This document shows, piece by piece, positions 9,338 through 62,551 of a stretch of 64,000 nt of DNA. The stretch lies in the NCBI GenBank assembly GCA_965261735.1, contig OZ253470.1:4608001-4672000 (forward strand), written 5' to 3'. The notes under the pieces were generated by a model, which searched no databases, was not told the origin of the DNA, and saw only the letters and a program-made list of their open reading frames with translations. Source of the DNA: Alphaproteobacteria bacterium. Its GTDB lineage: Bacteria; Pseudomonadota; Alphaproteobacteria; SHVV01. Made by a program: the position numbers and the translations under genes. The first letter of the stretch is position 1. The number at the start of each line of letters is the position of its first letter.

Positions 9338-10839
9338 CCGGTGGCCCCGGCCATGGCCAGCCCGATACGCCCGACATCGGCCTCGGCGCCGTCAAATTCG
9401 GCCGAGATGCGACCGCGATACATGACGAGAATGCGGTCGGCGAGCGCCAGAATCTCGTCCAGCTCCGTCGACACGATGAGAACCCCGACTCCCGCATCGC
9501 GCGCGGCCACGATCCGCTGGTGGATGTACTCGATCGACCCGACGTCGATGCCGCGGGTCGGCTGTGCGGCAACGATGAGGCGAATGTCGCGCGAGAACTC
9601 GCGGGCGACTACGAGCTTCTGCTGGTTGCCGCCGGACAGAAACTGCGTCGGTGTAAAGACCGACGGCGTGCGCACGTCGAAGTCTGCCGCCATCTGTGCC
9701 GCCGTCTCGTTGACGTCGTTCCAGCGCAGCCGGACGCCGCTCGAGTAGCGCGGCTCATAATAGGCATCCAGCGCCATGTTCTCGGCGACGATGAACTCGG
9801 CGATAACGCCGGAGCGTTGGCGATCCTCGGGCACGTGCGCCATGCCGATCTGGTGGTGCCGCCGGGGCGAGGTTTGGGTGACATCGATCCCCATCAAATC
9901 GATGCGGCCCGAGGCGACCGGTCGCAATCCGGCAATCGCCTCGACCAGCTCCGTTTGGCCGTTCCCCTGCACGCCAGCGATGCTGACGATCTCGCCCGCG
10001 CGCACCCGCAGATCGATGTCGTCCACCGCAGCGTCACCGTGCTCGCCGAGTACCCGCAGGCTGCGGACGTCGAGCATCACATCTCCCGGCTCGCGCGCCC
10101 GCTTGTCCACGGCCAGCACCACCGGGCGCCCGACCATCATCTCCGCCAGCGCGACTTCGCTCAGCTCGCTTACGTCGCCCTTGTCGACGACGGTGCCGGC
10201 GCGAAGGATCTCGATGCGGTCGGCGACGTCGATCACCTCGCGAAGCTTATGCGTAATGAAGACGATGGCCTTTCCCGCGTCGCGCAGCGCACGAATGACC
10301 TCGAAGAACTCGGTCACATCCTGTGGAGTGAGGACCGCCGTGGGCTCGTCGAAGATAAGCACCTCGGCCGCCCGGAAGAGGACTTTGAGGATCTCGACCC
10401 GCTGCTGGAGTCCCACCGGAAGGTTCTCTACGACCGCGTCGGGATCGACCTCGAGTCCGTAGCGCTGGCTGATGGAGCGAACCTGCTCCCGGGCTTGACG
10501 GATGTTCAGTGAATCGAGCGGCCCGGTGGGTTCGACGCCGAGAACGACGTTCTCCGCGACGGTGAACACCGGCACCAGCATGAAGTGCTGGTGGACCATG
10601 CCGATGCCAGCGGCGATGGCGTCGCCGGGGCTGTCGAAGAAGACCGGCTTACCGTCGACCAGGATGTCTCCCGAGTCCGGCCTGTAGAGACCGTACAGGA
10701 TGTTCATCAGGGTCGTCTTGCCGGCCCCGTTCTCGCCCAGCAGGCCGAGAATCTCGCCGGGCCGGATGGCGAGGCTCACGGAGTCGTTCGCGACCGTCTC
10801 ACCGAATTGCTTGGTGATAGCGCGGAGTTCGACGTCCAT
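9334..10839 (-). CDS. Nucleoside/sugar ABC transporter ATP-binding protein (two ABC domains)
   Basis: GENGAGKT, DEPTAVL, LSGGNQQK, QPTRGIDVG. Confidence 0.92.
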   Translation of the reverse strand: MDVELRAITKQFGETVANDSVSLAIRPGEILGLLGENGAGKTTLMNILYGLYRPDSGDILVDGKPVFFDSPGDAIAAGIGMVHQHFMLVPVFTVAENVVLGVEPTGPLDSLNIRQAREQVRSISQRYGLEVDPDAVVENLPVGLQQRVEILKVLFRAAEVLIFDEPTAVLTPQDVTEFFEVIRALRDAGKAIVFITHKLREVIDVADRIEILRAGTVVDKGDVSELSEVALAEMMVGRPVVLAVDKRAREPGDVMLDVRSLRVLGEHGDAAVDDIDLRVRAGEIVSIAGVQGNGQTELVEAIAGLRPVASGRIDLMGIDVTQTSPRRHHQIGMAHVPEDRQRSGVIAEFIVAENMALDAYYEPRYSSGVRLRWNDVNETAAQMAADFDVRTPSVFTPTQFLSGGNQQKLVVAREFSRDIRLIVAAQPTRGIDVGSIEYIHQRIVAARDAGVGVLIVSTELDEILALADRILVMYRGRISAEFDGAEADVGRIGLAMAGATG

Positions 10840-10925
10840 GATCCGGCCCCCTCCCCGCCGCGCAAGCGAAGCAGGACCCGACCGGGCCCTGCCTCAACGA
10901 CGCGATCACCTCAAAGGCGAGCGGG

Positions 10926-11963
10926 CTAGCCGCCGACCGAGATCGAACCGCTGACGATCCCCTTGCGGACCCCTTCGAGTTCGCTTTTCAACGCCGCCGG
11001 AACGGCGCCATCGAAATCGTGCAACGGCGCCAGGTCGACGCCACCGTTCTGCAGCGTTCCGACCAGCAGGCCGCCCTTGAACGTCCCGTCCTTCGCCTGC
11101 TTGATGGCGGTAAGGACCGTGGCATCCATCCTCTTGAGGACCGATGTGAGATAGACGTGACGCTTTTCCGGGTCGGTCAGGTATTGGTCGGCGTCGACAC
11201 CGATGATCTTAAGACGATCGGTGCCGAGCTCATCGGCCAATGCGGCGGAACCGAGCCCGACGGGTCCGGCGACGGGCATCACGATATCGGCGCCCTCGTC
11301 GTAGAGGTTTTGAGCGAACGTGCGCCCGTCGTCGAGGGAGTCGAAGTTGTTGGTGAAGAGGCCCTCGCGCGTTTCCGGGTTCCAACCGAGAACCTTGACG
11401 CTCCCGCCCTTCACCTTGTTGTGGTGAGCCACCCCCCGCGAGAACCCGTCCATGAAGATGGTCACGGGCGGGATGTTGATGCCGCCGAACGTGCCGAGCA
11501 CGCCCGACTTGGTCATGCCGGCCGCGAGATAGCCCGCGAGGAAGGCGGCCTCGTCGGTGGCGAAGATCTGGCCCAGTACGTTGGGCAGCGTCGGGTCATA
11601 GGCGAAATCGACAATCGAGAATTTGCGATCCGGGTTGGCTTTGGCGGCGACCTCGGTGGCCTCGCCGAGCAGGAAACCGACCGTAATAATGATGTCGCAC
11701 TTTTCGTCGATGAAGGCCCCTATGTTCGGCTGGTAGTCCGTCTCGGCTTGAGACTCGAGGTACTTCACCGTGACGCGGAGCTCACGCTCGGCGTCTTTCG
11801 CCCCCTTCCACGCGGTTTCGTTGAAGCTCTTGTCATCGATTCCCCCGGTGTCGGTGACTTGACAGGCTTTGAATTCCTGGGCGACCGCGGAGTTCAGCGG
11901 CAGCCCCGGCATCAGAGCCAGGGCAAAAGCCGAAAGCCCAATCCAAAGCATCCTGTTCTTCAT
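10926..11963 (-). CDS. BMP-family ABC substrate-binding protein (purine nucleoside type)
   Basis: Signal peptide MKNRMLWIG...AVA; DTGGIDDKSFN, VGF, IIGVDADQ; GGAGGA RBS. Confidence 0.88.
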   Translation of the reverse strand: MKNRMLWIGLSAFALALMPGLPLNSAVAQEFKACQVTDTGGIDDKSFNETAWKGAKDAERELRVTVKYLESQAETDYQPNIGAFIDEKCDIIITVGFLLGEATEVAAKANPDRKFSIVDFAYDPTLPNVLGQIFATDEAAFLAGYLAAGMTKSGVLGTFGGINIPPVTIFMDGFSRGVAHHNKVKGGSVKVLGWNPETREGLFTNNFDSLDDGRTFAQNLYDEGADIVMPVAGPVGLGSAALADELGTDRLKIIGVDADQYLTDPEKRHVYLTSVLKRMDATVLTAIKQAKDGTFKGGLLVGTLQNGGVDLAPLHDFDGAVPAALKSELEGVRKGIVSGSISVGG

Positions 11964-43075: not shown

Positions 43076-43210
43076 AGCGAGAGTTCGGAACATACGCGGC
43101 GCTCGGCGCCTATGGGGAAAGATGCAATCGGAGGCGGGCGGTGAATAAAGACAATGCCTATCCGCCCGAGATCGCATGGCAACGCTTCGATGCGCTCTTG
43201 GACCGGATGC

Positions 43211-44065
43211 TTAGAAGCGGGCCACCAGATCGCCAAACATCGGTCCAGGCCGCTTCCGGCGGTTATAGCGATACTCAAACTCCTTCACATACTTCTGAAG
43301 GTGCTTCCCGGACACATGAACGTGCGTCCCGCGAATCGACAGCTTCAACCGCGCCCAAAAGCCCTCAATCGAGTTCACATGGCTAGAGCCGCGCGCGTAC
43401 TGGCCCGCGCTGTGGTTGACGGTCTGGTGCGTATACCCAATCGTCGCCAATCCGCTGTAAGACTTGAGTTCGTCAGTATGAACGGTGCTACCCGGCTCGA
43501 CGTTCTCGGAGATAAACGCCTGCAAAGTCCGCTTTCGAACGTTCGGGACAACGTTCGCCATCACGTCGCCGTCGCGCTCCAGCATCCCGAACACCACGGT
43601 CTTGTTCGGAGCGCCGCGACCGCGCTTGCCACCGGTCGTACGGCCACCAACATAGGTCTCGTCGGCTTCAATATCGCCGTCCAGCGGCCACTCTCCGTCA
43701 GTATTAGCCATGTGTTTGCGGATCAAATGGCCCATGCGCCAAGCCGTGGGATAGGACACGTCAAGTTGGCGCTCCAGTTCCTTCGCGGGGACGCCGTGGC
43801 GCGATGTGGTGAACAGGAATATGGCGTAGAACCACTTGTGAAGCGGCAGATGCGTGCGGTGCATGAATGTGCCTGCGCACGGATAAATGTGGTGTTTGCA
43901 GTGCTGGCAGAGATACGCGCGATCACGTGCCAGGCGGTAGAACTTCCCATGCGCCCCGCACTTCGGGCAGTCAATCTCGGTGCCGCCGTAACGCTTCACC
44001 ATTATGTGGTGAAGGCACGCCTCGTCATCGGGAAACTGCTGCTGAAAATCGTAGAAAGTCGTCAT
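43211..44065 (-). CDS. IS1595-family transposase
   Basis: FPDDEAC, CPKC..CQHC, EADETYVGG, HTDE, HVNSIEGFW, EFEYRYNRR. Confidence 0.92.
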   Translation of the reverse strand: MTTFYDFQQQFPDDEACLHHIMVKRYGGTEIDCPKCGAHGKFYRLARDRAYLCQHCKHHIYPCAGTFMHRTHLPLHKWFYAIFLFTTSRHGVPAKELERQLDVSYPTAWRMGHLIRKHMANTDGEWPLDGDIEADETYVGGRTTGGKRGRGAPNKTVVFGMLERDGDVMANVVPNVRKRTLQAFISENVEPGSTVHTDELKSYSGLATIGYTHQTVNHSAGQYARGSSHVNSIEGFWARLKLSIRGTHVHVSGKHLQKYVKEFEYRYNRRKRPGPMFGDLVARF

Positions 44066-44179
44066 TATTTCCTCCTGTCCCCTGCATATGGGGATTGAGA
44101 TGTGACGTGTCAAGTTGATAATCGCGTTCTATTATCTAATGATGACGTCGTTCATGAGTACATGACCCAATGCCGTCCG

Positions 44180-45544
44180 ATGAGCGATAGCCTCACCGAG
44201 AGCTTCGTCACCTTCGCCACCGGAATCGGCGAGCACAATATCCCTGATGCCGCCGTGAGGGCCGTTCGCACGGGCTTCACCGACGGCGTCGCGGCGATGG
44301 TCGCCGGCCTCGCCGAGCCCGTGGCCGACGTGCTCCTGCGCACCGTTCGCGCGGCTGGCGGCGCACCCCAAAGCCGCATCGCGCTTCGCGAGGAGCGCGC
44401 GCCGGCGCCCGAGGCGGCGCTCGTCGGCGCGGCGTCCGCGCATGCGCTCGACTTCGACGATTACGCCTTCAGCTGCCATCCGAGCGCGGTGATGGTGCCG
44501 GCGATCCTGGCCGAGGCCGAGGTCGCGGGCGCGAGCGGCGCGGATATGGTGAGCGCCTATGTCGCCGGCTACGAGATATGGGCCAAGCTCATGAGCCGCG
44601 AGCCCGGCCACCTCCATACCAAGGGCTGGCACCCGACCGGCGTGTTCGGTCCCGTCGCCGTGGCCGCCGCGATCGCCGTGCTCGGGCGCTTCGATGCCGA
44701 TACGACGCGCCATGCCGTGGGCATCGCAGCCTCGCATAGCAGTGGTGTGATGGCCAATTTCGGCACGATGACCAAGCCTTATCACGCCGGGCGCGCCGCG
44801 CAGGGCGGCATCGTTGCGGCGCGCCTCGCCGCCAACGGGCTGAGCGCGGGCGATCGTGCCGTCGATGCCCCAAACGGGCTTCTCGCCGCTCTGTCGCCGG
44901 CTGGCGCCGTCGATCTCGAGACACCCATCACCACGCTCGGCCGCGACTGGTATATCGAGCGCCACGGCGTCAACGTGAAGAAATATCCGATGGTCGGTGC
45001 ATCGCAGCGCTGCATCGACGCGGCGCTGCAGCTAAAGACCGATCACGGTATCGAGGCGGCCAGAATCGCGCGGATTGTCGCCCGGGTCAGTCCCCGGCAT
45101 GCCGAAGTCATGCCCTTTCACGCGCCGGCCACGGGCCTGCAGGCGAAGTTCAGCCTAGAGTTCGCCCTCGCCAGCGCTTTCCTCACGGGCCGCGTCGGCC
45201 TCGGCGAAGTGACCGATTCCTTCGTCCAGCGCGACGACGTTCAACGCCTGATGCGCCGCGTCGAGATCGAGCGCAGCGCCGACGACGATCCGCTCTATGC
45301 GAACGGCGCCCGCGCCGATCTGGTCACGGCGTGCATGGACGACGGCGCGGTTCTCGTCAGCGATGAGGTAACCCGCGCCCGCGGCCATGGCCTGGTGCCG
45401 CTGTCGGCGGACGAGCTGTGGGCCAAGTTCGCCGACTGCACCCGTGAGCGCCTGTCGGATCGGGAGTCGCGCGCATTGTTCGAGGTGCTGCAGCGGATCG
45501 AAACCCTCGACTCGGCGGCGGAGATACCGAGCGTCCCCGCTTGA
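44180..45544 (+). CDS. MmgE/PrpD family protein
   Basis: AHALDFDD, HPS, GWHPT, FGTMTKPYHAG, KKYP, AKFS. Confidence 0.88.
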   Translation: MSDSLTESFVTFATGIGEHNIPDAAVRAVRTGFTDGVAAMVAGLAEPVADVLLRTVRAAGGAPQSRIALREERAPAPEAALVGAASAHALDFDDYAFSCHPSAVMVPAILAEAEVAGASGADMVSAYVAGYEIWAKLMSREPGHLHTKGWHPTGVFGPVAVAAAIAVLGRFDADTTRHAVGIAASHSSGVMANFGTMTKPYHAGRAAQGGIVAARLAANGLSAGDRAVDAPNGLLAALSPAGAVDLETPITTLGRDWYIERHGVNVKKYPMVGASQRCIDAALQLKTDHGIEAARIARIVARVSPRHAEVMPFHAPATGLQAKFSLEFALASAFLTGRVGLGEVTDSFVQRDDVQRLMRRVEIERSADDDPLYANGARADLVTACMDDGAVLVSDEVTRARGHGLVPLSADELWAKFADCTRERLSDRESRALFEVLQRIETLDSAAEIPSVPA

Positions 45545-45553
45545 TGCTTGCGC

Positions 45554-46387
45554 CTACCGCTTCAGGAACTCCTTCGCCAGGCTGACGACCCTCTCCGAGT
45601 GCTCGATGTGGGGCAGGTGGCCGCACTTATCGATGACGTGGAGCTCGGCCCTGGGCATGCTCTCGACCGCCACCTCGATCCTCTCCCAGTTGGCGCGCGG
45701 GTCCTGCTTGCCGGCGATGACCAGCGCTGGCACCTCGACCTGGTCGAGCTTGCCCACGATACGGTGGCCGATCGGTCCCTCCGCGTTGACGCGGTTCTTG
45801 TTGGCCTTGGTGTAGAACTCGACGCGGTCGGGCTGGGCGTACTGCGTGACCTGCATCATGAGGACGCCTTCCGGGATGCTTTCCGGGTCGTAAACGATGT
45901 TGGACAGGCGCCGGCGGCAGTCGGCGAGGTCGGGGTTGGCCATGGTCTTGGCCGAGTTCTCGAACGCGGCGCGCATCGACTTGCGGTAGTTCTCGTCGGT
46001 CGCGAAAGCCGAGCTGCTGCTGAGCATGATCAGCTTTTCGACCCGGTCCGGGACCTCGAAGTAGAGCAGGCCGACGATCAGCGCGCCGTAGGAGCTGCCG
46101 CAGGCATAGAATTTGTCTATCCCGAGCGCGTCCATGAAGTCGATCAGGTGGCGCACGGTGTAGGGCTGCGGAAGGTCCGTCCCGATGTCGACCGAGTCGG
46201 TAAAGCCGTGGCCGACGTTGTCGGGGGCGAAGACGGCGAAGTCCTCGGCCAGCGTGTCGATGCAGCGAATCCAGGCGTCCGCGGCCGTGCCGCCGCCGTG
46301 CACGAGGAGGAGCGCCTTGTCGTTGCCTTCGCCCTCGTAGAGGTAGCGCGTCCGCAGACCGCCTACGTCGATGAATTTCGCCTTCAT
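45554..46387 (-). CDS. Alpha/beta-fold hydrolase
   Basis: LLLVHGGG, APDNVGHG, GSSYGA nucleophile elbow, GKQD, CGHLPHIE. Confidence 0.85.
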   Translation of the reverse strand: MKAKFIDVGGLRTRYLYEGEGNDKALLLVHGGGTAADAWIRCIDTLAEDFAVFAPDNVGHGFTDSVDIGTDLPQPYTVRHLIDFMDALGIDKFYACGSSYGALIVGLLYFEVPDRVEKLIMLSSSSAFATDENYRKSMRAAFENSAKTMANPDLADCRRRLSNIVYDPESIPEGVLMMQVTQYAQPDRVEFYTKANKNRVNAEGPIGHRIVGKLDQVEVPALVIAGKQDPRANWERIEVAVESMPRAELHVIDKCGHLPHIEHSERVVSLAKEFLKR

Positions 46388-47435
46388 GCCGCCTCCTTTG
46401 CCCGCCGTGCAGGTCCAGTGCCGATCCACATGTTAGCCGCGCCGATGCCCGCGTGTCTTTCTTGCGCGGTATGGGCGCGGTCGGCTGGGAGCGAGAGGCG
46501 CGCTGTAACCCCACGAGGAACAACCGATGTCCCAAGCGGTGGCCAGATCCAAGCATCCCTTCCGCCCTGAGCCTGAATATTCGGGCACGCTACCGAGCTA
46601 CTACTACTGGGACCCGGAAATCTACGAGCGCGAAAAGGAGGAGATCTGGTTCAAGACCTGGCAGCTCGTCGGCCACACCATCGATCTCACGGAGCCGGGC
46701 GACTACTTCACCGCCGACATCCTCGATCAGAAGATTCTCGTGTGCCTCGGCAAGGACCGGAAGATACGCGCCTTCTACAATGTGTGCATGCACCGCGGCC
46801 ACGTGCTGGCCGAAGGGAAGGGATGCAAGAACATCTTCACGTGTCCCTTCCACGCCTGGTCCTATGACCTGACTGGCGCGCTCAAGGCCGCCGGCAACGC
46901 CGAGAACGTGGCCGGCTTCCGTTACGAGGAGTTCGGGCTGGCGGCGGTGCAGGTCGAGGTCCTGGCCAACATGGTGTTCGTCAACCTCGACCCGAATGCC
47001 GGCTCCCTCGCGGACCTGGTCCCGGGGCTCGAGGACGACATCCGCGCCTCGGTGCCCGACTACGATGACCTCAAGCTCGCCCGCATCGACGTGCTCGAGG
47101 TCCGCGCCAATTGGAAGTCAATCCTCGACGGGCTCGAGTGCTACCACTGCCCGATTATCCATCCCCACGTGTCGACCGGCAAGGAGGGCTATATCGAGCG
47201 CCGTTTCGTGGGCGACGAGTACGGCTACTGGCAGAAGCACACGTCCTACGGCAACCGCGAGGTCATCGAGAAGCACAAGGAGCGACTACCGCACGATCTC
47301 GGGACGGCCCAGGTCATCGACGTCCCGATCTACTACCTGTGGCCCAACCTCATCCTGATCGCGCACCAGGGGCCGAGCAACTTCAAGATCCTGCGCGCGG
47401 TGCCCGACGGGCCCGAGCACACCTATCGCATCAAC

Positions 47436-49616
47436 CTTGCCTATCCGGTTGACACCCACACCCACTAGGGCTAGTGGATTGATCGGAACGAAAGAGTCCG
47501 ATTTGAGATTCCGTATTGTGCGGTGTCATGCGAGTCTGTGCTATGCGCACCGGCATCCATTTTACTGTCACGTCTGGCGACCGTCAGCGATTGCAAGCTA
47601 TCGTCGCGGACCCGAAGAGCTCGCAGAAACATGTCTGGCGGGCGCGGATCATCCTGAAGAGCGACGAGGGGCTCGGGAACTCGTCGATCATGGCCGAGAC
47701 CGGCAAGTCCAAGACCTGTGTCTGGCGCTGGCAGGAGCGGTTCATGCACGAGGGTGTCAACGGCTTGCTTCGCGACAGGTCCCGTCCGCCTGGCAAAGCG
47801 CCGATCCCGCCGGAGCGCGTCGCCGAGATCGTCCGCCTGACCCAGCAAGCGCCGCCGCACGAGGCGACCCACTGGACGCTGCGCGCGATGGCGAAGGTTG
47901 CTGGCGTCGCGGCGTCGACGGTCCAAGCGATCTGGAAGGCCCATGGCCTCAGCCCGCACCGCTGGCGGCACTTCAAGCTCTCCAATGATCCCGCCTTCGC
48001 CGAGAAGCTCACAGATATCGTCGGCTTGTATGTCGATCCGCCGGCCCATGCCGTGGTGCTGTCGGTTGATGAGAAATCACAGATCCAGGCGCTCGACCGC
48101 ACCCAACCCGGCTTGCCGATGAAGAAGGGCCGCGCCGGTACGATGACCTATGATTACAAACGGCATGGCACGACGACGCTGTTCGCCGCGCTCAACGTGC
48201 TGGACGGTACGGTCATCGCACAGAACATGCAGCGCCACCGCCATCAGGAGTTCATCCGCTTCCTCAACCGCATCGAGCGCGAGGTGCCGACGGACAAGGC
48301 CGTCCACGTCATCCTCGACAACTACGCCGCGCACAAGAAGGACAAGGTCCGCGCCTGGCTCGCCCGCCATCCACGCTGGACCTTCCACTTCACGCCAACC
48401 TCGTGCTCGTGGCTCAATGCCGTCGAGGGCTTCTTCGCCAAACTAACGCGGCGCAGGCTCAAATACGGCGTCTTCCAATCCGTCGTCGACCTTCAGGCCG
48501 CCATCAACCGATTTGTCCGCGAATACAATGACGCAAACCCAAAACCCTTCATCTGGAAAGCCGACCCCGATCATATCATCGCCGCACGAAACAGAGGGTT
48601 CCAAACGTTGGAATCAATCCACTAGAATGGGCGCAACCCGGATATAGGGGAGCGCGCCATGGATGTTCTCGACCGCGCCGATCTCCCATTCCCGCATTCG
48701 CTACCCGAGTTCCAGCGACTTTTCCCCGATGATGCGGCCTGCGCCGCCTACCTGGAGAAAGCCCGCTGGGGAGACGGCTTTGCCTGCCCGCACTGCGGCA
48801 CGGCGGGAGAGCCGTTCCACTTTGAAAACCGCCCTGGCGTCCTGCGCTGCCGCAAGTGCCGCCAGAACACCGGGCTGACGGTGGGAACAGTGATGGAGCG
48901 TAGCCACACTCCGCTGAACGTCTGGTTCTGGGCCGCTTATCTGGTCGCCAGTCAGACGCCCGGCATGTCCGCCGTGCAGTTTCAGCGGCAACTTGGTCTT
49001 TCGCGCTACGAGACGGCCTTTCAAATTCTCCACAAGCTCCGCTCGGGCATGGTGCGGCCCAACCAAGACAGGATCGGTGGACAGCCCAAGAACCATGTTG
49101 AGGTGGACGAAACCTGGGTTGGCGGGCGAACGCGTGGGGAAGGCCGTGGTGTTCACCACAAGGTTCCCGTCTCCTGTGCCATCGACGTCGTGCTCGACCG
49201 TAGCGCCGAGTCGCTCTGTGGGTTCGTCGAGAGCACCGTCGCGCCGCGATCGCTGATCGTTACTGACGATTGGAGCGGCTATGCTGGCCTCGGTAAGCGC
49301 GGCTATGAGCACTTCGCTGTTGCCGAGTGTGGTGATCCAGAGGTTGCCGAGCAATACCTGCCGATCATCCATCTGGTTTTCGCCAACCTGAAGACGTGGC
49401 TGATCGGTATCCACCACGGCGTTAGCCACCAGCACCTACAAGCCTACCTCAACGAGTTCACCTTCCGCTTCAACAGGCGGTTCTACCCGTTCAACGCCTT
49501 CCGCTCATTGCTCGGCATCGCGGGCGACACCTCTGCTCCAACCTATGCCGAGCTTTACTCGGGAGAGTGGCGGCACCCTACATGTAGCGGTCATGGGCGT
49601 TAACCGGATAGGCAAG
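47436..49616 (+). mobile_element. IS1595-family element A, copy 2 (transposase 48659-49603, 75-bp in-frame deletion)
   Basis: IRs CTTGCCTATCCGGTTGACACCCA / TGGGCGTTAACCGGATAGGCAAG; 8-bp duplication GCATCAAC at 47428-47435 and 49617-49624; 314 aa versus 339 aa in copy 1. Confidence 0.92.
47475..48621 (+). mobile_element. IS630-family element, copy 3 (transposase 47543-48625), nested in IS1595
   Basis: CTAG at 47471-47474 and 48622-48625; the empty site is visible in IS1595 copy 1 (GGGCTAGAATGG); one D>A change versus copies 1 and 2. Confidence 0.93.
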
Positions 49617-52273: not shown

Positions 52274-53284
52274 ATGAAACTGTTCGTGATCGAGAAGCCC
52301 GGGAGCATCGATGCGCTGACGCTGAGTGAGCGCGCGGACCCCGTACCGGGTCCGCACGACGTCGTCGTGCGGGTGCGCGCGACCTCGCTCAACTATCGCG
52401 ACCTGATGGTCCTCACCGGAAGCTACGGGCGCGGATCGAAGCCGAACCTCGTCCCGCTGTCGGATGGCGCCGGCGAGGTGATCGAGGTCGGAGAGGGCGT
52501 CACCCGCGTCAAGGTCGGCGACCGGGTGTGTGCGATCTTCATGCAGCGCTGGCTCGGCGGGGCGATGACGCGCGAGGCCCAGGCCTCATCCCTCGGCGGC
52601 GCCATCGACGGCGTGCTGGCGGAACAGGTGATGCTCCACGAGGACGGTCTCGTCCCCGTGCCCGATCACCTGTCCTACGAGGAGGCGGCGACGCTGCCCT
52701 GCGCCGCCGTGACCGCCTGGAACGCCCTCGTTGCGCGTGGCCGGCTCGCGGCTGGCGAAACGGTGCTAGTACAGGGATCGGGCGGCGTCTCGGTGTTCGC
52801 GCTTCAATTCGCGCGGCTCACAGGTGCGCGCGTGATCGCGACCTCATCGAGCGATGACAAGCTCGAGCGCTTGCGCGCCCTCGGGGCCTCGGAGCTCATC
52901 AACTACCGGCGCACCCCTGAATGGGACGCCGCGGTCAAGGACGCAACGGGCGGGCGCGGGGCCGATCACATCGTCGAGGTCGGCGGCGCCGGCACGTTGG
53001 CCCGGTCGCTGGCCTGCGTCAGTCTGGGCGGGCGCATCAGCGTCATCGGGCTCCTGTCCGGCGCCGCCGAGATCGACCCCATGCCGATCCTGCGGCACTC
53101 GGCCACGGTCCAGGGTATCTATGTCGGCAGCCGGCAGATGTTCGAGGCGATGAACCGGGCGATCGCCGAGCACGAAATGCGCCCCGTGGTCGACCGGGTT
53201 TTTCCTTTCGCGGACACGGTGGCGGCGTTCCGCTACTTCGAGAGCCAGGCGCACTTCGGCAAGGTCGTCATCGCGCTGCCCTGA
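52274..53284 (+). CDS. MDR-family NAD(P)-dependent oxidoreductase (alcohol dehydrogenase-like)
   Basis: SLNYRD, PLSDGAGEV, AATLPCAAVTAW, GSGGVS, HFGKVVI. Confidence 0.88.
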   Translation: MKLFVIEKPGSIDALTLSERADPVPGPHDVVVRVRATSLNYRDLMVLTGSYGRGSKPNLVPLSDGAGEVIEVGEGVTRVKVGDRVCAIFMQRWLGGAMTREAQASSLGGAIDGVLAEQVMLHEDGLVPVPDHLSYEEAATLPCAAVTAWNALVARGRLAAGETVLVQGSGGVSVFALQFARLTGARVIATSSSDDKLERLRALGASELINYRRTPEWDAAVKDATGGRGADHIVEVGGAGTLARSLACVSLGGRISVIGLLSGAAEIDPMPILRHSATVQGIYVGSRQMFEAMNRAIAEHEMRPVVDRVFPFADTVAAFRYFESQAHFGKVVIALP

Positions 53285-53306
53285 GCGTCACCGAGTAGGC
53301 CATAAC

Positions 53307-54116
53307 CTAAGGCGCGGGTTCGCCCGCCGCGCTGATACGGTTCAGCGTGACGTTGCCGCCGCCCGAATAGTCGCTGATGTGGTAGTGCGTGTTGCAGCGG
53401 TCGTCCCACAGAATGAGGTCGTTGAGCCGGAAGTGATGGCGGTAGATGAACTCCGGTCGCGAGCAGTGCTCGCCGAGGAAGCGCAGCAGGGCGTCGCTCT
53501 CGCTCGGCATGAGACCGAGGATTTCGGTGGTGAAGGCGGGATTGACGAGCAGCGCCTTCCGCCCCGACTCGGGATGGGTGTAGACGATGGGGTGTTCAGC
53601 CGCCCCCTCTGATTCGCCGGCTTCCGCTGCAAGCCTCGGGTTGCGGTGCAGGGCAACAAGCTCGCCCAGCATGCGCTGCATTGGCTCCGACAGCGCCTCG
53701 TAGCTCGCGTACATGTTGGCGAAGAACATGTCGCCGCCGCGCGGCGGAAGCTCGACCACATGGACGATCGAGGCGCCCGACAGTCTCGACTCGCAGGTGT
53801 GGGCCGCGTGCCAGACGCTGCCGTTGCGAACAGTATCGCGCGGCATAGCCTTCTCTTCGACCAGCACCTGATAGTGGTAGATCTCGGGGTAGCCCGGCAT
53901 CTGCGTCAGGTTGGGCAGTAGCAGCTCGCCGAAACGGCGGCCAAAGTCGAGGTACGCCTCGGGCGTAAGGTGTTGATCGCGAATCACCATCACCCCGTCA
54001 TGGTCGAGCCATACCTGGCGCAGTTCGCCAAACAGGTTGTCGCCGATCTCCGATACGTCGACGCCAACGACCTCGGCGCCCAGCGCCGACGAAAGAGTGC
54101 TGACCGTGTGGGGCAT
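53307..54116 (-). CDS. TauD/TfdA-family Fe(II)/2-oxoglutarate enzyme with H-x-A metal motif
   Basis: LGAEVVGVD, RDQHLT, FGRRFG, WHAAH, GGD.FANMYASYEALS, HPIVYTHPESGRKAL, WDDRCNTH, R; AGGAGG RBS. Confidence 0.85.
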   Translation of the reverse strand: MPHTVSTLSSALGAEVVGVDVSEIGDNLFGELRQVWLDHDGVMVIRDQHLTPEAYLDFGRRFGELLLPNLTQMPGYPEIYHYQVLVEEKAMPRDTVRNGSVWHAAHTCESRLSGASIVHVVELPPRGGDMFFANMYASYEALSEPMQRMLGELVALHRNPRLAAEAGESEGAAEHPIVYTHPESGRKALLVNPAFTTEILGLMPSESDALLRFLGEHCSRPEFIYRHHFRLNDLILWDDRCNTHYHISDYSGGGNVTLNRISAAGEPAP

Positions 54117-54336
54117 TTGCGGCACCTCCTGTGAAAGGAGCTTCCCGGCGGCGGGCCCCAGGCTCGCCGCAATGGGCCTTAGCGCTACTATACGCCCAAC
54201 CCGATCGTTCATCTTCCCATCGTCGCACCCGCAAGAGGGGCGAGGCCGCTCACCCCGCGGCCGGTCGTGCCGGGCGCTGTCTTCGGCTATAACCGGCGTG
54301 CCGGGAAGGAACGGCGGCCTGACGCGCATACACCCG

Positions 54337-55533
54337 ATGCCCAAATCCACTCCAACGCCGGAACGTAATTTCCCGTTGCGGCGCACCATCGCCGATCTTC
54401 CGTCCTCCAAGATTCGCGAGGTGGCGGCGCTCGGCATGGGCAAGCCGGGCGTCATACCGCTGTGGTTCGGTGAGCCCGATCTGCCGACGCCGGACTTCAT
54501 CAACCGCGCGGCGAGCCAGGCGCTCGAGGCGGGGCACACCTTCTACACCATGAACCGCGGCGTGCCGGCCCTGCGCGAGGCGCTGGCCGCCTATCTCGGC
54601 CGCCTCTACGAGCGCCCCATCGGTGTCGAGCGAATCACGGTGACGGCCTCGGCGATGAACGCGCTCGCGATCCTCATGCAGACCCTGATCGATCCCGGCG
54701 AGAACGCGGTGCTGACGGCGCCGCTATGGCCCAACATCGCGGCCACGGTGCGGATCATGGGCGGCGAAGCGCGCGCCGTGGCGCTCGCCGAGGGCAACGC
54801 GGGCTGGCGGCTCGACCTCGACCGCCTGTTCGATTCCGTTGACGTGCGGACGCGAGCCCTGTTCATCAACTCGCCCAACAATCCGACCGGATGGATGATG
54901 GAGCGCGAGGACCAGGAGGCGGTGCTCGAGTTCTGCCGCGTCCGCGGCATTTGGATCCTGGCTGACGAGGTCTACGACCGAATCGTCTACGACCGGCCGC
55001 GCGCGCCCTCCTTTCTCGACATCGCCGAAGACGACGACCTCGTCATCGGCGTCAACAGCTTCTCCAAGTCCTGGGCCATGACGGGTTGGCGCATGGGGTG
55101 GCTCGTCGCTCCCGATGCGTTCGGCCACGTGCTGGAAAAGATGAACGAGTACAACATCGCCGGTGCGCCGAGCATGGCGCAGCACGCGGGGATCGCCGCG
55201 CTCGGCCAGGGCGAGGCCTTCATCGCCGAATCGGTGGCCCGCTACCGGCGTGCGCGCGATCTCGTGTCCGAGCGCCTCGCGGCCATGCCGCGGGTCGGCT
55301 ATGTGCGCCCCAACGCCGCGTTCTACGCATTCTTCTCCGTCGAGGGCGTGAGCGACAGCCTGGCCTTCGCCAAAGACCTGCTGCTGCGATCGGGCGTGGG
55401 CCTCGCGCCCGGAATCGCCTTCGGTCCCGCCGGGGAGGGCCACTTGCGCCTGTGCTTCGCCAGTACGCCGGAAACGCTGAGCCGCGCCATGGACCGCCTG
55501 GAGGAGGCCCTCGCCGATGGGGTTGCCGCCTGA
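54337..55533 (+). CDS. PLP-dependent aminotransferase class I/II
   Basis: FGEPDLPTP, NSPNNPTG, DEVY, SFSKSWAMTGWRMG, LRLCFA. Confidence 0.9.
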   Translation: MPKSTPTPERNFPLRRTIADLPSSKIREVAALGMGKPGVIPLWFGEPDLPTPDFINRAASQALEAGHTFYTMNRGVPALREALAAYLGRLYERPIGVERITVTASAMNALAILMQTLIDPGENAVLTAPLWPNIAATVRIMGGEARAVALAEGNAGWRLDLDRLFDSVDVRTRALFINSPNNPTGWMMEREDQEAVLEFCRVRGIWILADEVYDRIVYDRPRAPSFLDIAEDDDLVIGVNSFSKSWAMTGWRMGWLVAPDAFGHVLEKMNEYNIAGAPSMAQHAGIAALGQGEAFIAESVARYRRARDLVSERLAAMPRVGYVRPNAAFYAFFSVEGVSDSLAFAKDLLLRSGVGLAPGIAFGPAGEGHLRLCFASTPETLSRAMDRLEEALADGVAA

Positions 55534-57963: not shown

Positions 57964-58657
57964 ATGCAGGTCGAGAGCAAAATACGCATCTGCATTGCCG
58001 ACGACGAGGTTCTGCTCCGCGCCGGACTGGCGCGGCTCCTCCATGAACTCGGCGCCGAGGTAGAGATACTCGAGGCTGGCGATTTCGCCACGGCGCACCG
58101 TCTCGTCGCCAATGAGCACGCCCTTGACGCGCTCCTTCTCGACCTCGATCTCCTCGGCGTGCAGCCCGACCGGAGCCTACGCCTACTTCGCCAGGCGGCG
58201 CCCGACTTGGCGATCGTGATCTGCTCGGCCTCCGAGGATCCGAACACCGTATTCTCGATGATCGACGGCGGGGCCGTCCGGCTACCTGCCCAAGACGTCG
58301 TCGACCGAGGTCACTCTGAGCGCGGTAAGGCTGGTGCTCTCGGGCGGCTCCTACGTGCCCCCGAGCGTGTTCATCGCCAGCGTTCGCGAGTCGGGGGCGC
58401 GCGTCCGCTTCGGCATGGGCGAGCCGCCGCCCGATTCGGTCGATCCGCAGAACAGGGTGGCGGCACTCACGCCGCGCCAGCTCGAGGTGCTCAAGCAGAT
58501 CGGTAAGAGCAAGACGAACAAGCAGATCGCAGCCGAACTCGGCCTCGCCGAAGGTACTGTCAAGGCCCACGCCAACGCCATTCTCGCCAAGCTCGGGGTC
58601 CGGAACCGCACGGCCGCCGGGATCCTCGCCCATCGCTCCTTCGCCGAGGAACCCTAG
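57964..58657 (+). pseudogene. NarL/LuxR-family response regulator with +1 frameshift
   Basis: IADD..LLLDL receiver; extra C at ~58279 separates it from GYLPK...LTPRQLEVL..NKQIA..GTVKAH. Confidence 0.8.
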
Positions 58658-58669
58658 GCCGTAGGCGCG

Positions 58670-59167
58670 TCAGCGCCGATGCGCGCGCCGCCACAGCGGT
58701 TCGCGGTCGTCGATCGCCGGCTGATAGGTGACCGACACCTCCGCGAATGCCCCCAGGGCATCCTCCAAATCGTGGCGCTGGTGAATCTCGAAGGCATCGA
58801 AGCCGCACCGGTACATGTAGTAGAGCTGATCGCGCAAGACCTCTCCGACGGCCCGGATCTCCCCCTGATAGCCGAAGCGCTCGCGCAGCAGGCGCGCGGT
58901 CGAGAAGCCGCGGCCGTCGGTGAGCTTGGGAAACTCGATCGCGACGACGCCGAAACTGTCGAGGTCGTCGGCAACGTCCTCGGCGCGGTCGGCGCTCGTC
59001 AGGCGGACGCCGAGCCTTGGACTGCGGTGTCGGAGCGCGTTGCGCTCGCGCTGCCAGCGCTCGAGGCTGACAATGATGTCGCCCTCGGGTAACGCGGTGG
59101 CCGCAACGTCATCGTCAACATGCATCCACGTATCGTCGGCAATGGCGCGATTCTTAATGATGCGCAT
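58670..59167 (-). CDS. DUF934 family protein (sulfite reductase-associated)
   Basis: FPKLTDGRGFSTARLLRER..GEIRAVGEVLRDQ..RCGFDAF. Confidence 0.88.
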   Translation of the reverse strand: MRIIKNRAIADDTWMHVDDDVAATALPEGDIIVSLERWQRERNALRHRSPRLGVRLTSADRAEDVADDLDSFGVVAIEFPKLTDGRGFSTARLLRERFGYQGEIRAVGEVLRDQLYYMYRCGFDAFEIHQRHDLEDALGAFAEVSVTYQPAIDDREPLWRRAHRR

Positions 59168-60809
59168 AGAGGCGCTTCTTGAACGGCTCCTCGCCTATTC
59201 TCCGGTAGGTCGCCAGGAAGGGCTCGTCCTCGAGCCGGTTGTCGATGAAGACACTCAGCATGGTCTCGACCGCGTCGACGATCTCATCCTTTGAGAAGGC
59301 CGGCCCGACGATCTTGCCGATCGAGGCGTCGTCCTTCGGCGACCCCCCGAGCGTGACCTGGTAGTACTCCTCGCCGTTCTTGTCGAGCCCGAGAATGCCG
59401 ACATTCCCGGTATGGTGGTGGGCACACGAGTTGATGCAGCCCGACATGTTGACGGTGAACTCACCGAGATCGTGCAGGTAGTCGACATCGTCGAAGCGGC
59501 TGCCGATGCGCTTGGCGATAGGGATCGAGCGCGCCGTGGCGAGGCCGCAATAGTCGAGGCCGGGGCAGCAGATGATATCGGTCAGCGTACCGATATTGGC
59601 GGTCGCGCAGCCGATGCGGTCGAGCGCGCGCCACAATTCGTGGAGCTCGGCGTTGGGCACGTCGGCTAGCACCAGGTTTTGGTCGTAGGCGACGCGGACC
59701 TGGCCGAAGCTATAGCGGTCGGCGATATCGGCAATGGCGTCCAACTGCGAGTCGGTGGCATCGCCCGGCGGCGCGCCCGGCGCTTTCAGAGACACGTAGA
59801 CGGCGCTGTAGCCGGGCACCTTGTGCGCCACGATGTTGCTGCGGAACCAGCGCGCGAAGGCCGCGTCCGTCGCGCGCGCCTCGTCGAGGGCCGGCTCGTT
59901 GGCCGGCAGCACCACATAACGAGGCGGCGCGAAGTGCGCCCGCAGGCGCGCGATCTCGGAATCGTCGAGCTGCAGGTTGCCTTCCCTGATCGCCTCCCAC
60001 TCGGCCTCGACGCGCTCGCGAAAGGCTTCGATGCCGAGGCTGTGCACCAGGATTTTGATACGAGCCTTGAACAGATTGTCGCGCCGGCCCTCGAGGTTGT
60101 AGATGCGCAGGATCGCCTCGAGGTAGGACAGCAGGTCGCGCTTGGGCAGGAAGTCGTGGATCACCTTGCCGATCATGGGTGTCCGGCCCATCCCGCCGCC
60201 CACAAGAACCTCGAATCCGACCTCGCCGGCGTCGTCGCGCACGAGGCGGAGCCCGATGTCGTGCAGCCTTACCGCGGCACGGTCATGCGCGGCACCCGTA
60301 ACCGCGATCTTGAACTTGCGCGGCAGGAACAGGAATTCGGGGTGGAAGGTCGACCACTGGCGAATGATCTCGCAGTAGGGCCTCGGATCCTCGATCTCGT
60401 CGGCGGCGACGCCGGCGAGCACGTCGGCCGTCACGTTGCGAATGCAGTTGCCGCTCGTCTGAATGGCGTGCATCTCGACATCCGCGAGGAGCTGAAGAAT
60501 GTCCGGCACGTCGTCCAGAGCCGGCCAGTTGAACTGGATGTTCTGGCGCGTGGTGAAGTGGCCGTAGCCCTTGTCATAGGTGCGGGCGATGTGGGCGAGT
60601 TGGCGCACCTGGCGCGACGACAGCAATCCGTAGGGGATCGCGACGCGCAGCATGTAGGCGTGGAGCTGGAGGTAGAGGCCGTTGCGCAGCCGGAGAGGCT
60701 TGAACTCGTCCTCGCTCAGCTCCCCGGCGAGGCGCCGGCGGACCTGATCGCGGAATTGCTCAACGCGATCGTTGACGACCGCGCGGTCGAGCTCGTCATA
60801 CTTGTACAT
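59154..60809 (-). CDS. cysI: Siroheme sulfite/nitrite reductase hemoprotein
   Basis: NGLYLQLHAYMLR, TTRQNIQ, TSGNCIRN, LPRKFK, CPGLDYC, SGCINSC. Confidence 0.88.
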   Translation of the reverse strand: MYKYDELDRAVVNDRVEQFRDQVRRRLAGELSEDEFKPLRLRNGLYLQLHAYMLRVAIPYGLLSSRQVRQLAHIARTYDKGYGHFTTRQNIQFNWPALDDVPDILQLLADVEMHAIQTSGNCIRNVTADVLAGVAADEIEDPRPYCEIIRQWSTFHPEFLFLPRKFKIAVTGAAHDRAAVRLHDIGLRLVRDDAGEVGFEVLVGGGMGRTPMIGKVIHDFLPKRDLLSYLEAILRIYNLEGRRDNLFKARIKILVHSLGIEAFRERVEAEWEAIREGNLQLDDSEIARLRAHFAPPRYVVLPANEPALDEARATDAAFARWFRSNIVAHKVPGYSAVYVSLKAPGAPPGDATDSQLDAIADIADRYSFGQVRVAYDQNLVLADVPNAELHELWRALDRIGCATANIGTLTDIICCPGLDYCGLATARSIPIAKRIGSRFDDVDYLHDLGEFTVNMSGCINSCAHHHTGNVGILGLDKNGEEYYQVTLGGSPKDDASIGKIVGPAFSKDEIVDAVETMLSVFIDNRLEDEPFLATYRRIGEEPFKKRLYAHH

Positions 60810-61107
60810 GCCAGGTTCCGCGCCCCAAATCGCCGACTGTGGGCCCGATGGCCCGGATCTTCTCCCGTAGCGCCACCGCTTCGGTACCGGCCTGGCCGAC
60901 AACGACGTCGATCGCGTAGGGCTCGATGACGATCGCGCGGCCGGCGTCCGCCGCGGCAAGCGTCGTAAGCGCCGCGAGGGCTCCTGCGTCAGCCGTGGCG
61001 CTTGCCTCGGCGATCGATTCGGTCCACGAACGCTCATCGGCGTTGCGGCGCAAGTAAACAGGTACGCCGTCGCGGATGCGGTTGGCGGTAATGACTCTCT
61101 CGCTCAT
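60796..61107 (-). CDS. DUF2849 family protein
   Basis: VITANRIRDGVPVYL...EPY...LREKIRAIGPT, between cysG and the reductase. Confidence 0.85.
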   Translation of the reverse strand: MSERVITANRIRDGVPVYLRRNADERSWTESIAEASATADAGALAALTTLAAADAGRAIVIEPYAIDVVVGQAGTEAVALREKIRAIGPTVGDLGRGTWHVQV

Positions 61108-61126: not shown

Positions 61127-62551
61127 TCAACCGGCCGCGCCCGCGGCCGGTATTGGCTCTGCGGTGCTGAAGTGCCGTGCTGACGCGGCGTCGTGCAGGG
61201 CGACGACCTCGCCGATGATGAGAATTGCCGGCCCGCCCAATTCGGCCTCGCGTGCCGAGGCGCCGAGGTCTTCCAGTGTCGTGACCACGACCTGCTGCTG
61301 CGGCAGCGTGCCGTTGTCGATGATGGCGGCGGGGGTTCGCGGGTCGCGGCCGTGGCCGATCAGTTGGCGGGCGAGGGGCCCGATCGACGACAGCCCCATA
61401 TAGACGACCACCGTCTGGCCGGCCCTTGCCAGCGTCGGCCAGTCGAGGTCGAGGGCGCCGCCCTTGCCGTGGCCGCAGACGAAGACGCAGCTGTGCGCAT
61501 GGTCGCGGTGGGTGAGTGGAATGCCTGCGTAAGCGGCGCACCCGAGAGCGGCCGTGATGCCGGGAACGACCTCGGCCTCGATCCCGGCTGACGCCAGCGC
61601 CGCGATCTCTTCGCCGCCGCGCCCGAAAATAAACGGATCTCCGCCCTTGAGCCGGACGACCCTTTTGCCGGCGCGCGCCAGCGATACCAGGAGCGCATCG
61701 ATGTCGGCTTGGGCTGTCGCTGCGTCGCCCTTCGTCTTGCCCACGTCAATGCGCTCGGCGTCGCGGCGCGCATAGTCGAGGACGCGATCGCCGACGAGCC
61801 GGTCGAAAACCAGGACGTCCGCCGCCTGCACCAGCCGAAGCGCGCGCAACGTCAAGAGTTCGGGATCGCCGGGGCCGGCGCCGACAATGGCCACTCGGCC
61901 GGCGATGTCGTGGGGTGGCAGGGGCGCATTGAGCAGCGCAATCATCCGCTCGCGCGCCTTGGCGCCATCGCCACTGAGCGCCGCATCCGCGACCGTACCC
62001 TCGAGCGCGCGCCGCCAAAAGCGGCGCCGTGCTGCCGCCTCCGGGATGAGTGCCTTGACCGCGCCACGGAACGATGCGGCCAACGAAGCGAGGCCGCCAT
62101 AGGCCGCGGGCACGAGCCCTTCGATGCGGGTTTTGAGCAGCCGGGTCAGGGCCGGCGCGGCGCCACCGCTCGAAACCGCGATGACCACGGGCGAGCGGTC
62201 GATGATCGCCGGCATGATGAAACTGCTGGCTTGGGCGTCGTCGACCACGTTGACGGCGATGTCGCGCGCGGCCGCGGCCCGGGCAACGGCGCGGTCGCGG
62301 CGGGCATTGCCGGTCGCGGCGATCACGAGGCTCGCCCCGTCCAGGTCCTCGGCGCGGAATTGCCGCGCGAGGTGTAGGACCTCACCCTTGTCGAGTGTGC
62401 GCGCAAGCTCCGGGCATAGCGTCTCGGCGAGCACCGTGACGCGGGCGCCCGCGCTTCGCAGGAGGGCGACCTTCGCGGCCGCCTGCACGCCGCCGCCAAC
62501 GACGAGGCAGCCGCGGCCCTTGAGGTCGATGAATATGGGCAGATAGTCCAC
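61127..62551 (-). CDS. cysG: Siroheme synthase
   Basis: YLPIFIDL..VVGGG, NVVD, SSGGAAP, VGAGPGDPELLT, RLKGGDPFIFGRGGEE, VPGITAA. Confidence 0.93.
   Translation of the reverse strand: MDYLPIFIDLKGRGCLVVGGGVQAAAKVALLRSAGARVTVLAETLCPELARTLDKGEVLHLARQFRAEDLDGASLVIAATGNARRDRAVARAAAARDIAVNVVDDAQASSFIMPAIIDRSPVVIAVSSGGAAPALTRLLKTRIEGLVPAAYGGLASLAASFRGAVKALIPEAAARRRFWRRALEGTVADAALSGDGAKARERMIALLNAPLPPHDIAGRVAIVGAGPGDPELLTLRALRLVQAADVLVFDRLVGDRVLDYARRDAERIDVGKTKGDAATAQADIDALLVSLARAGKRVVRLKGGDPFIFGRGGEEIAALASAGIEAEVVPGITAALGCAAYAGIPLTHRDHAHSCVFVCGHGKGGALDLDWPTLARAGQTVVVYMGLSSIGPLARQLIGHGRDPRTPAAIIDNGTLPQQQVVVTTLEDLGASAREAELGGPAILIIGEVVALHDAASARHFSTAEPIPAAGAAG

Follow-up and report, generated by a model that had tools for sequence, protein, structure and literature searches.

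The TauD enzyme group is defined by two invariants, a triad of two histidines and one carboxylate that binds iron and an Arg/Thr clamp on the co-substrate 2-oxoglutarate (2OG). We analysed a stretch of 64,000 nucleotides of DNA from Alphaproteobacteria bacterium (the window; contig OZ253470.1 of GenBank assembly GCA_965261735.1), which encodes a protein of this family, P0001, that departs from both. Judged from its sequence, P0001 comes from a small, undescribed TauD/TfdA subclade with a rebuilt cofactor site, here called the HxA clade. The gene and the signal that precedes it are as follows.

53307..54116, minus strand: P0001, TauD/TfdA-family gene of the HxA clade (stop codon included; 269 amino acids; assigned from its translation, Pfam family PF02668, an AlphaFold2 model and Foldseek)
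54125..54130, minus strand: Shine–Dalgarno sequence AGGAGG, 8 nucleotides 5′ of the ATG at 54116 (read from the sequence)

The minus-strand frame of P0001 is intact from the ATG (54116-54114) to the stop codon (53309-53307), and the original prediction for this gene, that it encodes a free-standing radical halogenase of the TauD fold, was right that both frame and ribosome-binding site are undamaged. An open reading frame (ORF) that extends to 54539 is not the gene, because homologues share the start Met of P0001. The protein matches the TauD profile PF02668 over positions 4-265 of 267 (E value 3.2e-48; 165.4 bits against a cut-off of 27), and an AlphaFold2 model built from an alignment of 118 sequences reached a mean predicted local distance difference test (pLDDT) score of 92.7 and a predicted template modelling (pTM) score of 0.91. 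Searched with Foldseek, this model found PlaO1, AAD-1/RdpA and TauD as its best matches (template modelling (TM) scores 0.84-0.90, E value 2e-27), and the top matches are all TauD/TfdA-group enzymes. A full-length Pfam hidden Markov model match together with a double-stranded beta-helix fold places P0001 in the TauD/TfdA family at the level of the fold. On the NCBIfam taurine dioxygenase model NF007104 it scores 167.6 bits, under the cut-off of 313, and it is therefore not a TauD equivalog. GC content at third codon positions (GC3) is 0.83, close to the 0.85-0.88 of six neighbouring genes, so P0001 looks like a normal resident coding gene. Scans of 53100-54450 gave no promoter-like site and one terminator-like site, which lies within the P0001 gene and is no more than shuffled sequences give. 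P0001 is a free-standing protein, as had been proposed, and a tblastn search of the window for a second TauD paralogue returned the P0001 gene alone.

Active-site residues were mapped by aligning the product of E. coli K-12 tauD with P0001 and its relatives. In TauD, iron is held by H99, D101 and H255 and taurine is bound by H70 and R270 (PMC9304159); R266 binds the C5 carboxylate of 2OG and R270 the sulfonate of the substrate (PMC7949033). The corresponding positions in P0001 are listed here.

53799..53813, minus strand: codons for W102 (TGG), H103 (CAC, 53808-53810; TauD H99, the proximal iron ligand, kept), A104 (GCG), A105 (GCC, 53802-53804; TauD D101, the iron-ligand Asp, replaced by Ala) and H106 (CAC; TauD V102, the residue after the Asp ligand)
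53727..53729, minus strand: Met130, equivalent to TauD T126, the Thr of GGDT (GGDM in P0001, residues 127-130)
53400..53402, minus strand: Asp239, equivalent to TauD N250 of the WDNR turn, five residues ahead of the distal His
53385..53387 (CAC), minus strand: His244, equivalent to TauD H255, the distal iron ligand, kept, at the close of WDDRCNTH
53349..53351, minus strand: Val256, equivalent to TauD R266, the Arg for the 2OG C5 carboxylate, lost
53337..53339, minus strand: Arg260, equivalent to TauD R270, the anchor for the anionic group of the substrate, kept

P0001 reads W-H103-A-A105-H106 where E. coli TauD reads W-H99-T-D101-V, and A105 falls exactly on the iron-ligand Asp in alignments to PlaO1, P. 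putida TauD and E. coli TauD, which bears out the motif and codons on which the original prediction was built. Both histidines of the canonical HxD...H site are present (H103 and H244) and its carboxylate is replaced by Ala105; neither member of the canonical R266 and T126 pair remains (Val256 and Met130); and the substrate-anchoring C-terminal Arg is there as R260. Spacing is gapless with respect to most relatives, with Arg in them and Val in P0001 twelve residues after H244 and Arg in both sixteen residues after it, and residues 250-259 of P0001 contain no Arg or Lys. In the alignment used for the model, His244 is invariant (118/118 sequences), as is Arg260. The distal His had thus been correctly called as kept; the accompanying statement that the C-terminal Arg is kept holds for the substrate anchor R260 and fails for the 2OG Arg, which is Val256. 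Around the substrate, the TauD taurine contacts H70, Y73 and N95 correspond to Leu, Leu and Gly, and S158 falls within a deletion.

The altered residues are fixed across the HxA clade. Listed hits from three database searches, together with P0001, made up 349 sequences that were aligned together, and the clade comprises four full-length clusters at 90% identity, namely P0001 (the same as P0002), P0003, P0004 and P0271, and three metagenome fragments, P0005, P0123 and P0152. Full-length members are 56-59% identical pairwise, with P0004 and P0271 at 85%, and P0005 is 80% identical to P0001 across the first 186 residues. All five of the nearest relatives that cover the site (56-80% identity) have Ala105, and the motif WHAAHT[C/Y]E is found in 5/5 clade sequences that cover it. 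GGDM, Asp239 and Val256 each occur in 6/6 covering clade sequences, GGDM and Val256 in all four full-length members among them, and both His ligands and Arg260 are kept throughout the clade. Ala105 is conserved in homologues, and it is not the case that close homologues all carry Asp or Glu; the GGDM and WDDR deviations, which had been set down as caveats to the halogenase proposal, are real and are fixed characters of the clade rather than noise.

Among the 339 other relatives, 324 carry the canonical H-D-T-N-H-R-R pattern. None has Ala105, all 339 have Thr at position 130, 335 of the 336 with a residue at position 256 have Arg there (one is non-Arg), and position 239 is Asn in 98% and Asp in a single sequence. 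His stands at position 106 in 12 of the 339, 11 of them with Asp at the ligand position and one with Glu, and because such a residue occurs alongside a kept Asp, its presence alone does not mark a replaced ligand. Seven cofactor-site positions, defined by their roles in TauD, are 7/7 invariant in the HxA clade, whereas of all 269 columns 115 are invariant there (hypergeometric p ~0.002), and the longest invariant runs are WHAAHT and GGDMFFAN; the remodelled site therefore appears to be under selection and not decaying. Equivalents of the TauD substrate shell are invariant at two of seven positions. Six 'new' residues are also 6/6 invariant, but carry no weight because the set was chosen for invariance. 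No Arg or Lys gained by the clade and rare elsewhere, as a replacement for R266 might be, was found in the 349-sequence alignment; His81 and His106 are new in the clade, and His246 is new in three of its four members.

The HxA clade is also narrowly distributed. Profile search scores drop from 493 to 309 bits right after the last clade member, and given this sharp gap the clade is rare in the collection of 5.8 billion clusters. Genome contigs searched for further members gave two loci and no others, L001 of the sister type (50% identity) and the more distant L002 (36%). In a plasmid collection, 470 records match P0001, all at less than 60% identity (at most 38.9% among the 25 matches listed), and none is a clade member. 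As to fused forms, seven long proteins were found at E<=1e-30 (top score 180 bits, with 37% identity), and none belongs to the clade, which is weak evidence. Two of the metagenome fragments are irregular, in that the similarity of P0005 ends after about residue 153 and the N-terminal 50-60 residues of P0152 are unrelated; both look more like products of frameshifts or chimeric assembly than genuine variants. A literature search, which covered texts other than subscription papers and supplements, turned up no account of a TauD-family clade that has HxA or lacks the 2OG clamp, and, subscription papers again aside, none of a TauD-family halogenase or of a 2OG-independent TauD-like protein.

A sister clade suggests the order in which the site was changed. 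Its members P0006, P0122 and P0272 keep HxD and Asn239 and have Ile130 and Val256 (3/3). In a maximum-likelihood tree of 41 rows, made by a quick search and rooted on E. coli TauD, the HxA clade and the sister clade each have a Shimodaira–Hasegawa approximate likelihood-ratio test (SH-aLRT) support of 99 and are joined at 93, and the stem and tip branches of the HxA clade are of ordinary length. Of 39 family positions taken as conserved (at least 90%), the sister clade keeps 36, differing solely at 112, 130 and 256, and on this pattern looks like an active iron enzyme with an altered co-substrate site. The HxA clade keeps 25 of the 39 in all four members and has five fixed changes at such positions, 105, 112, 130, 239 and 256. 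On the simplest history, the changes to the 2OG clamp would pre-date the loss of Asp. The sister-type locus L001 (10001-13376), from a Rhizobium sp. metagenome-assembled genome, holds two sister-type TauD-family genes in tandem (10001-10807 and 10830-11639), both with HxD kept and with Ile/Val at the positions of TauD T126 and R266. The second of the two is identical to P0122 and is followed by an SsuA-family ATP-binding cassette (ABC) binding-protein gene; this locus may be linked to sulfonates and use a co-substrate other than 2OG.

Around P0001 the window holds genes of catabolic type. Its two immediate neighbours are these.

54337..55533, plus strand: class I/II pyridoxal phosphate (PLP) aminotransferase, divergent, about 220 bp from the P0001 start (PF00155, E value 2.5e-55; NF004770, 523.6 bits against a cut-off of 422)
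52274..53284, plus strand: gene of the zinc-type alcohol dehydrogenase (ADH)/quinone oxidoreductase family, convergent, ending 22 bp from the P0001 stop (PF00107, PF08240)

The latter gene also has a PIG3-family match, which falls under its cut-off. Farther neighbours are a short-chain dehydrogenase/reductase (SDR) gene, a formamidase-family gene, a GbcA-like Rieske oxygenase, a two-domain VOC protein and two transposase genes, and no gene for a nonribosomal peptide synthetase (NRPS), a polyketide synthase (PKS) or a carrier protein was found in the neighbourhood of P0001, in agreement with the original prediction of a catabolic rather than biosynthetic setting. Between 49882 and 52108, the two-domain VOC/glyoxalase-fold protein, with weak similarity to extradiol dioxygenases, adjoins the alpha subunit of the Rieske oxygenase, whose closest match is the glycine-betaine monooxygenase subunit GbcA, far below cut-off.

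Several further features of the window stand apart from P0001. A Rieske/ring-hydroxylating alpha-subunit ORF at 46527-47468 (313 amino acids) matches the catalytic-domain profile only as far as position 131 of 208, and directly after it come two transposase genes, 47516-48625 (DDE_3 and HTH domains) and 48659-49603 (IS1595 type); it is probably an oxygenase gene cut by insertion of an insertion sequence (IS). A stretch of some 420 bp near 49196-49615 shows 79% identity to three sphingomonad plasmids, and a megablast search of the 9-kb neighbourhood against plasmids matched an IS fragment only. On the minus strand, a nitrite/sulfite reductase haemoprotein gene (59154-61037) adjoins a CysG-type sirohaem synthase gene (61127-62551), with a short plus-strand response-regulator ORF (57964-58506) upstream of the pair. 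In the region 43154-46570, an MmgE/PrpD-family gene (44102-45544) lies between ORFs of 314 and 340 amino acids, neither of which has a Pfam or NCBIfam match at the thresholds used.

What P0001 does can be approached from what its site retains and what it has given up. The fold, both histidines, the anion-anchoring Arg and an intact, conserved pocket together favour a working ligand and metal site. Both positions of the C5-carboxylate clamp have become Met and Val with no cationic substitute, which disfavours canonical 2OG binding, and without canonical 2OG use the protein would be left with a more hydrophobic 2-oxo acid or no co-substrate. We give an even chance to the explanation that P0001 is a neofunctionalised TauD-fold metalloprotein that would use a 2-oxo acid other than 2OG, of more hydrophobic character, or would need no co-substrate, an outcome that fits the 'other non-canonical enzyme' named in the original prediction as its second option.

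Such a protein would have arisen in two steps. In the first, common to the sister clade, the T126/R266 clamp on the 2OG C5 carboxylate would have become hydrophobic (Ile/Met and Val); in the second, on the HxA branch alone, the ligand Asp would have given way to Ala alongside N239D, Y/H106 (the residue after the ligand becoming His), R179Y and I130M, the two His ligands and the substrate-anchoring Arg being kept throughout. From the observed residue states, conservation, tree order and fold we infer how the site might work, in metal binding, third ligand, co-substrate and any catalysis. The metal would still be bound through His103 and His244, its third position would go to His106, to a carboxylate of the bound ligand or, as in AspH, to a water that Asp239 holds in place, and an anionic small molecule would be bound at Arg260. 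There is a precedent for the ligand carboxylate as third ligand in TauD D101A, which is rescued by formate (PMC2767507). A bolder form of this proposal, possible if rather unlikely, is that the HxA and sister clades are the first TauD-fold oxygenases to abandon 2OG, with a hydrophobic co-substrate pocket or no co-substrate and, in the HxA clade, a 2-His site with a free position open to water, to an exogenous anion or to the carboxylate of a substrate. Branched-chain and thioether 2-oxo acids would be examples of such a co-substrate, which the divergent aminotransferase might supply, and the free position could in principle allow a halogenation-like anion transfer without 2OG.

Several points weigh against a neofunctionalised metalloprotein of this kind. 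The loss of a two-part clamp presupposes that TauD T126, too, is a hydrogen-bond ligand of the 2OG C5 carboxylate. An Arg lies one residue before Val256, at position 255, in P0004, P0271 and the sister clade (Asn in P0001 and Ala in P0003). The coupling of A105 with N239D rests on a single evolutionary event. ScoE lacks an R266 equivalent and yet uses 2OG, so loss of the canonical ligands is not a strict exclusion of 2OG, and a 2-His iron site is regarded as labile unless a 2-oxo acid is bound (PMC4019311). Finally, nine of the 39 family-conserved positions vary in single HxA members, for example W237S in P0003 and W229F in P0001, against none in the sister clade; this sporadic variation fits relaxed constraint and would favour a non-catalytic protein.

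The main rival is a non-catalytic TauD-fold pseudoenzyme, which would have taken on a ligand-binding, regulatory or scaffolding role after losing first the 2OG site and then the Asp. Beyond the sporadic variation just described, it draws on the loss of three of the five canonical cofactor contacts (the equivalents of D101, T126 and R266), on the inactivity of TauD D101A (PMC2767507) and on the variable substrate shell, with only two of its seven TauD equivalents invariant. The remodelled site is nevertheless the best-conserved part of the protein (7/7 positions and the runs WHAAHT and GGDMFFAN), both His ligands and Arg260 are present in all members, and Ala105 is fixed across lineages that are 56-59% identical although a dead site would tolerate any residue; nor are the stem and tip branches elongated. 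We consider a pseudoenzyme unlikely.

Another rival would make P0001 a 2OG hydroxylase like AspH, with iron on two histidines, a water held by the second-sphere Asp239 and 2OG bound in a non-canonical or inducible pose. AspH itself provides the precedent, in that its iron has two His ligands and a bound water that is held by Asp721, a second-sphere residue four positions before the distal His725 (PMC10915816); in the HxA clade the Asn-to-Asp change five residues before His244 appears together with Asp-to-Ala at the ligand position, and an inducible 2OG site is possible on the example of ScoE. In AspH, however, Arg735 forms a salt bridge to the C5 carboxylate of 2OG, whereas P0001 has no such Arg and a hydrophobic pocket, and the A105/D239 coupling amounts to one evolutionary event. 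We consider an AspH-like hydroxylase quite improbable.

A free-standing Fe(II)/2OG radical halogenase, in which halide would occupy the place of the missing carboxylate, was the leading idea of the original prediction. P0001 has the small side chain at the ligand position that is found in SyrB2 (HxA), a rule described in PMC12346261 and bioRxiv 10.1101/2023.05.25.542349; Ala105 is kept in 5/5 clade sequences, both His ligands are retained, and ScoE is a TauD-family enzyme that binds 2OG although it has no R266 equivalent. The proposal took the 2OG site to be intact, but Met130 and Val256 stand in place of the two canonical C5 ligands and no cationic substitute has been gained, with ScoE as the caveat to reading this as a loss of 2OG binding. 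Fe(II)/2OG halogenases all carry 2OG as a bidentate iron ligand (bioRxiv 10.1101/2023.05.25.542349) and draw the haloferryl from it, a 2-His iron site is regarded as labile when 2OG is absent (PMC4019311), and on the tree the clamp was lost before the Asp, so that Ala arose in a lineage already off canonical 2OG binding. Asp239 was gained in the same step as Ala105 and, if it lies near the vacant site, would disfavour an anion there. Engineering points the same way, since TauD D101A and P4H D414A/G lose hydroxylation without gaining halogenase activity (PMC2767507), and single-residue swaps generally failed (bioRxiv 10.1101/2023.05.25.542349). Kinship to a characterised halogenase lineage was not found, with no halogenase among 32 PDB sequence hits and none among the 24 Foldseek matches listed, and the genomic context is not biosynthetic. 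Because known Fe/2OG halogenases need 2OG and TauD D101A gains no halogenation, a canonical halogenase is very improbable; HxA is necessary in known Fe/2OG halogenases and not sufficient.

An artefact or decaying pseudogene, due to one erroneous base (GAC>GCC) or to a mutation that recently inactivated the gene, is hardly credible and was rejected on conservation and gene integrity, because although GCC is one nucleotide from GAC, the identical protein represents a database cluster found on 7 contigs, relatives at 56-80% identity share the Ala and five other fixed changes, and the gene has an intact frame, a strong ribosome-binding site and normal GC3.

The HxA lineage would have altered its 2OG clamp before its carboxylate ligand and then kept the replacements unchanged, so that the canonical group, the sister clade and the HxA clade form a natural series for studying the evolution of cofactor use on a non-haem iron scaffold. 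An active P0001 would point to a TauD-scaffold protein with a novel co-substrate or reaction, and an inactive one would be a clean case of an oxygenase turned binding protein. For genome mining, HxA or HxG alone is insufficient for a halogenase call, and the 2OG contacts should be checked too. The HxA clade is a well-defined, testable lead.

Among known systems, P0001 shares its fold with the TauD (1OS7, 1GQW)/TfdA/AtsK group (Foldseek TM score 0.88 to 1os7). It shares with TauD both iron-ligand histidines (proximal and distal), the motifs GGD and WD.R and the Arg that anchors the substrate, and differs from it in Asp to Ala at the ligand, T126 to Met, R266 to Val, N250 to Asp and a shortened loop where TauD bears S158 and F159. 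The best matches of solved structure are PlaO1 (7QTD), of the phenalinolactone pathway, and the aryloxyalkanoate dioxygenases RdpA/AAD-1 (E value 4.9e-42, TM scores 0.86-0.90); PlaO1 has W-H-T-D where P0001 has W-H-A-A, and these proteins are deposited as Fe(II)/2OG dioxygenases, in entries with 2OG or succinate, whereas P0001 is without the canonical 2OG contacts. The isonitrile synthases of the ScoE/Rv0097 type, which are among the sequence hits of P0001, belong to the TauD family and lack the R266-equivalent Arg (PMC7949033). ScoE keeps its 2-His-1-Asp triad and recruits an inducible Arg157/His299 pair for 2OG (PMC7949033), whereas the HxA clade has no comparable clade-specific Arg. The halogenases SyrB2, CytC3, WelO5, BesD and DAH are of other subfamilies, related to P0001 not detectably beyond the general fold. 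AspH is of an unrelated subfamily as well and keeps the Arg735 salt bridge to 2OG (PMC10915816); it is not a halogenase, and its two-His iron without a carboxylate ligand is paralleled, at the level of residue pattern, by A105 and D239 of P0001.

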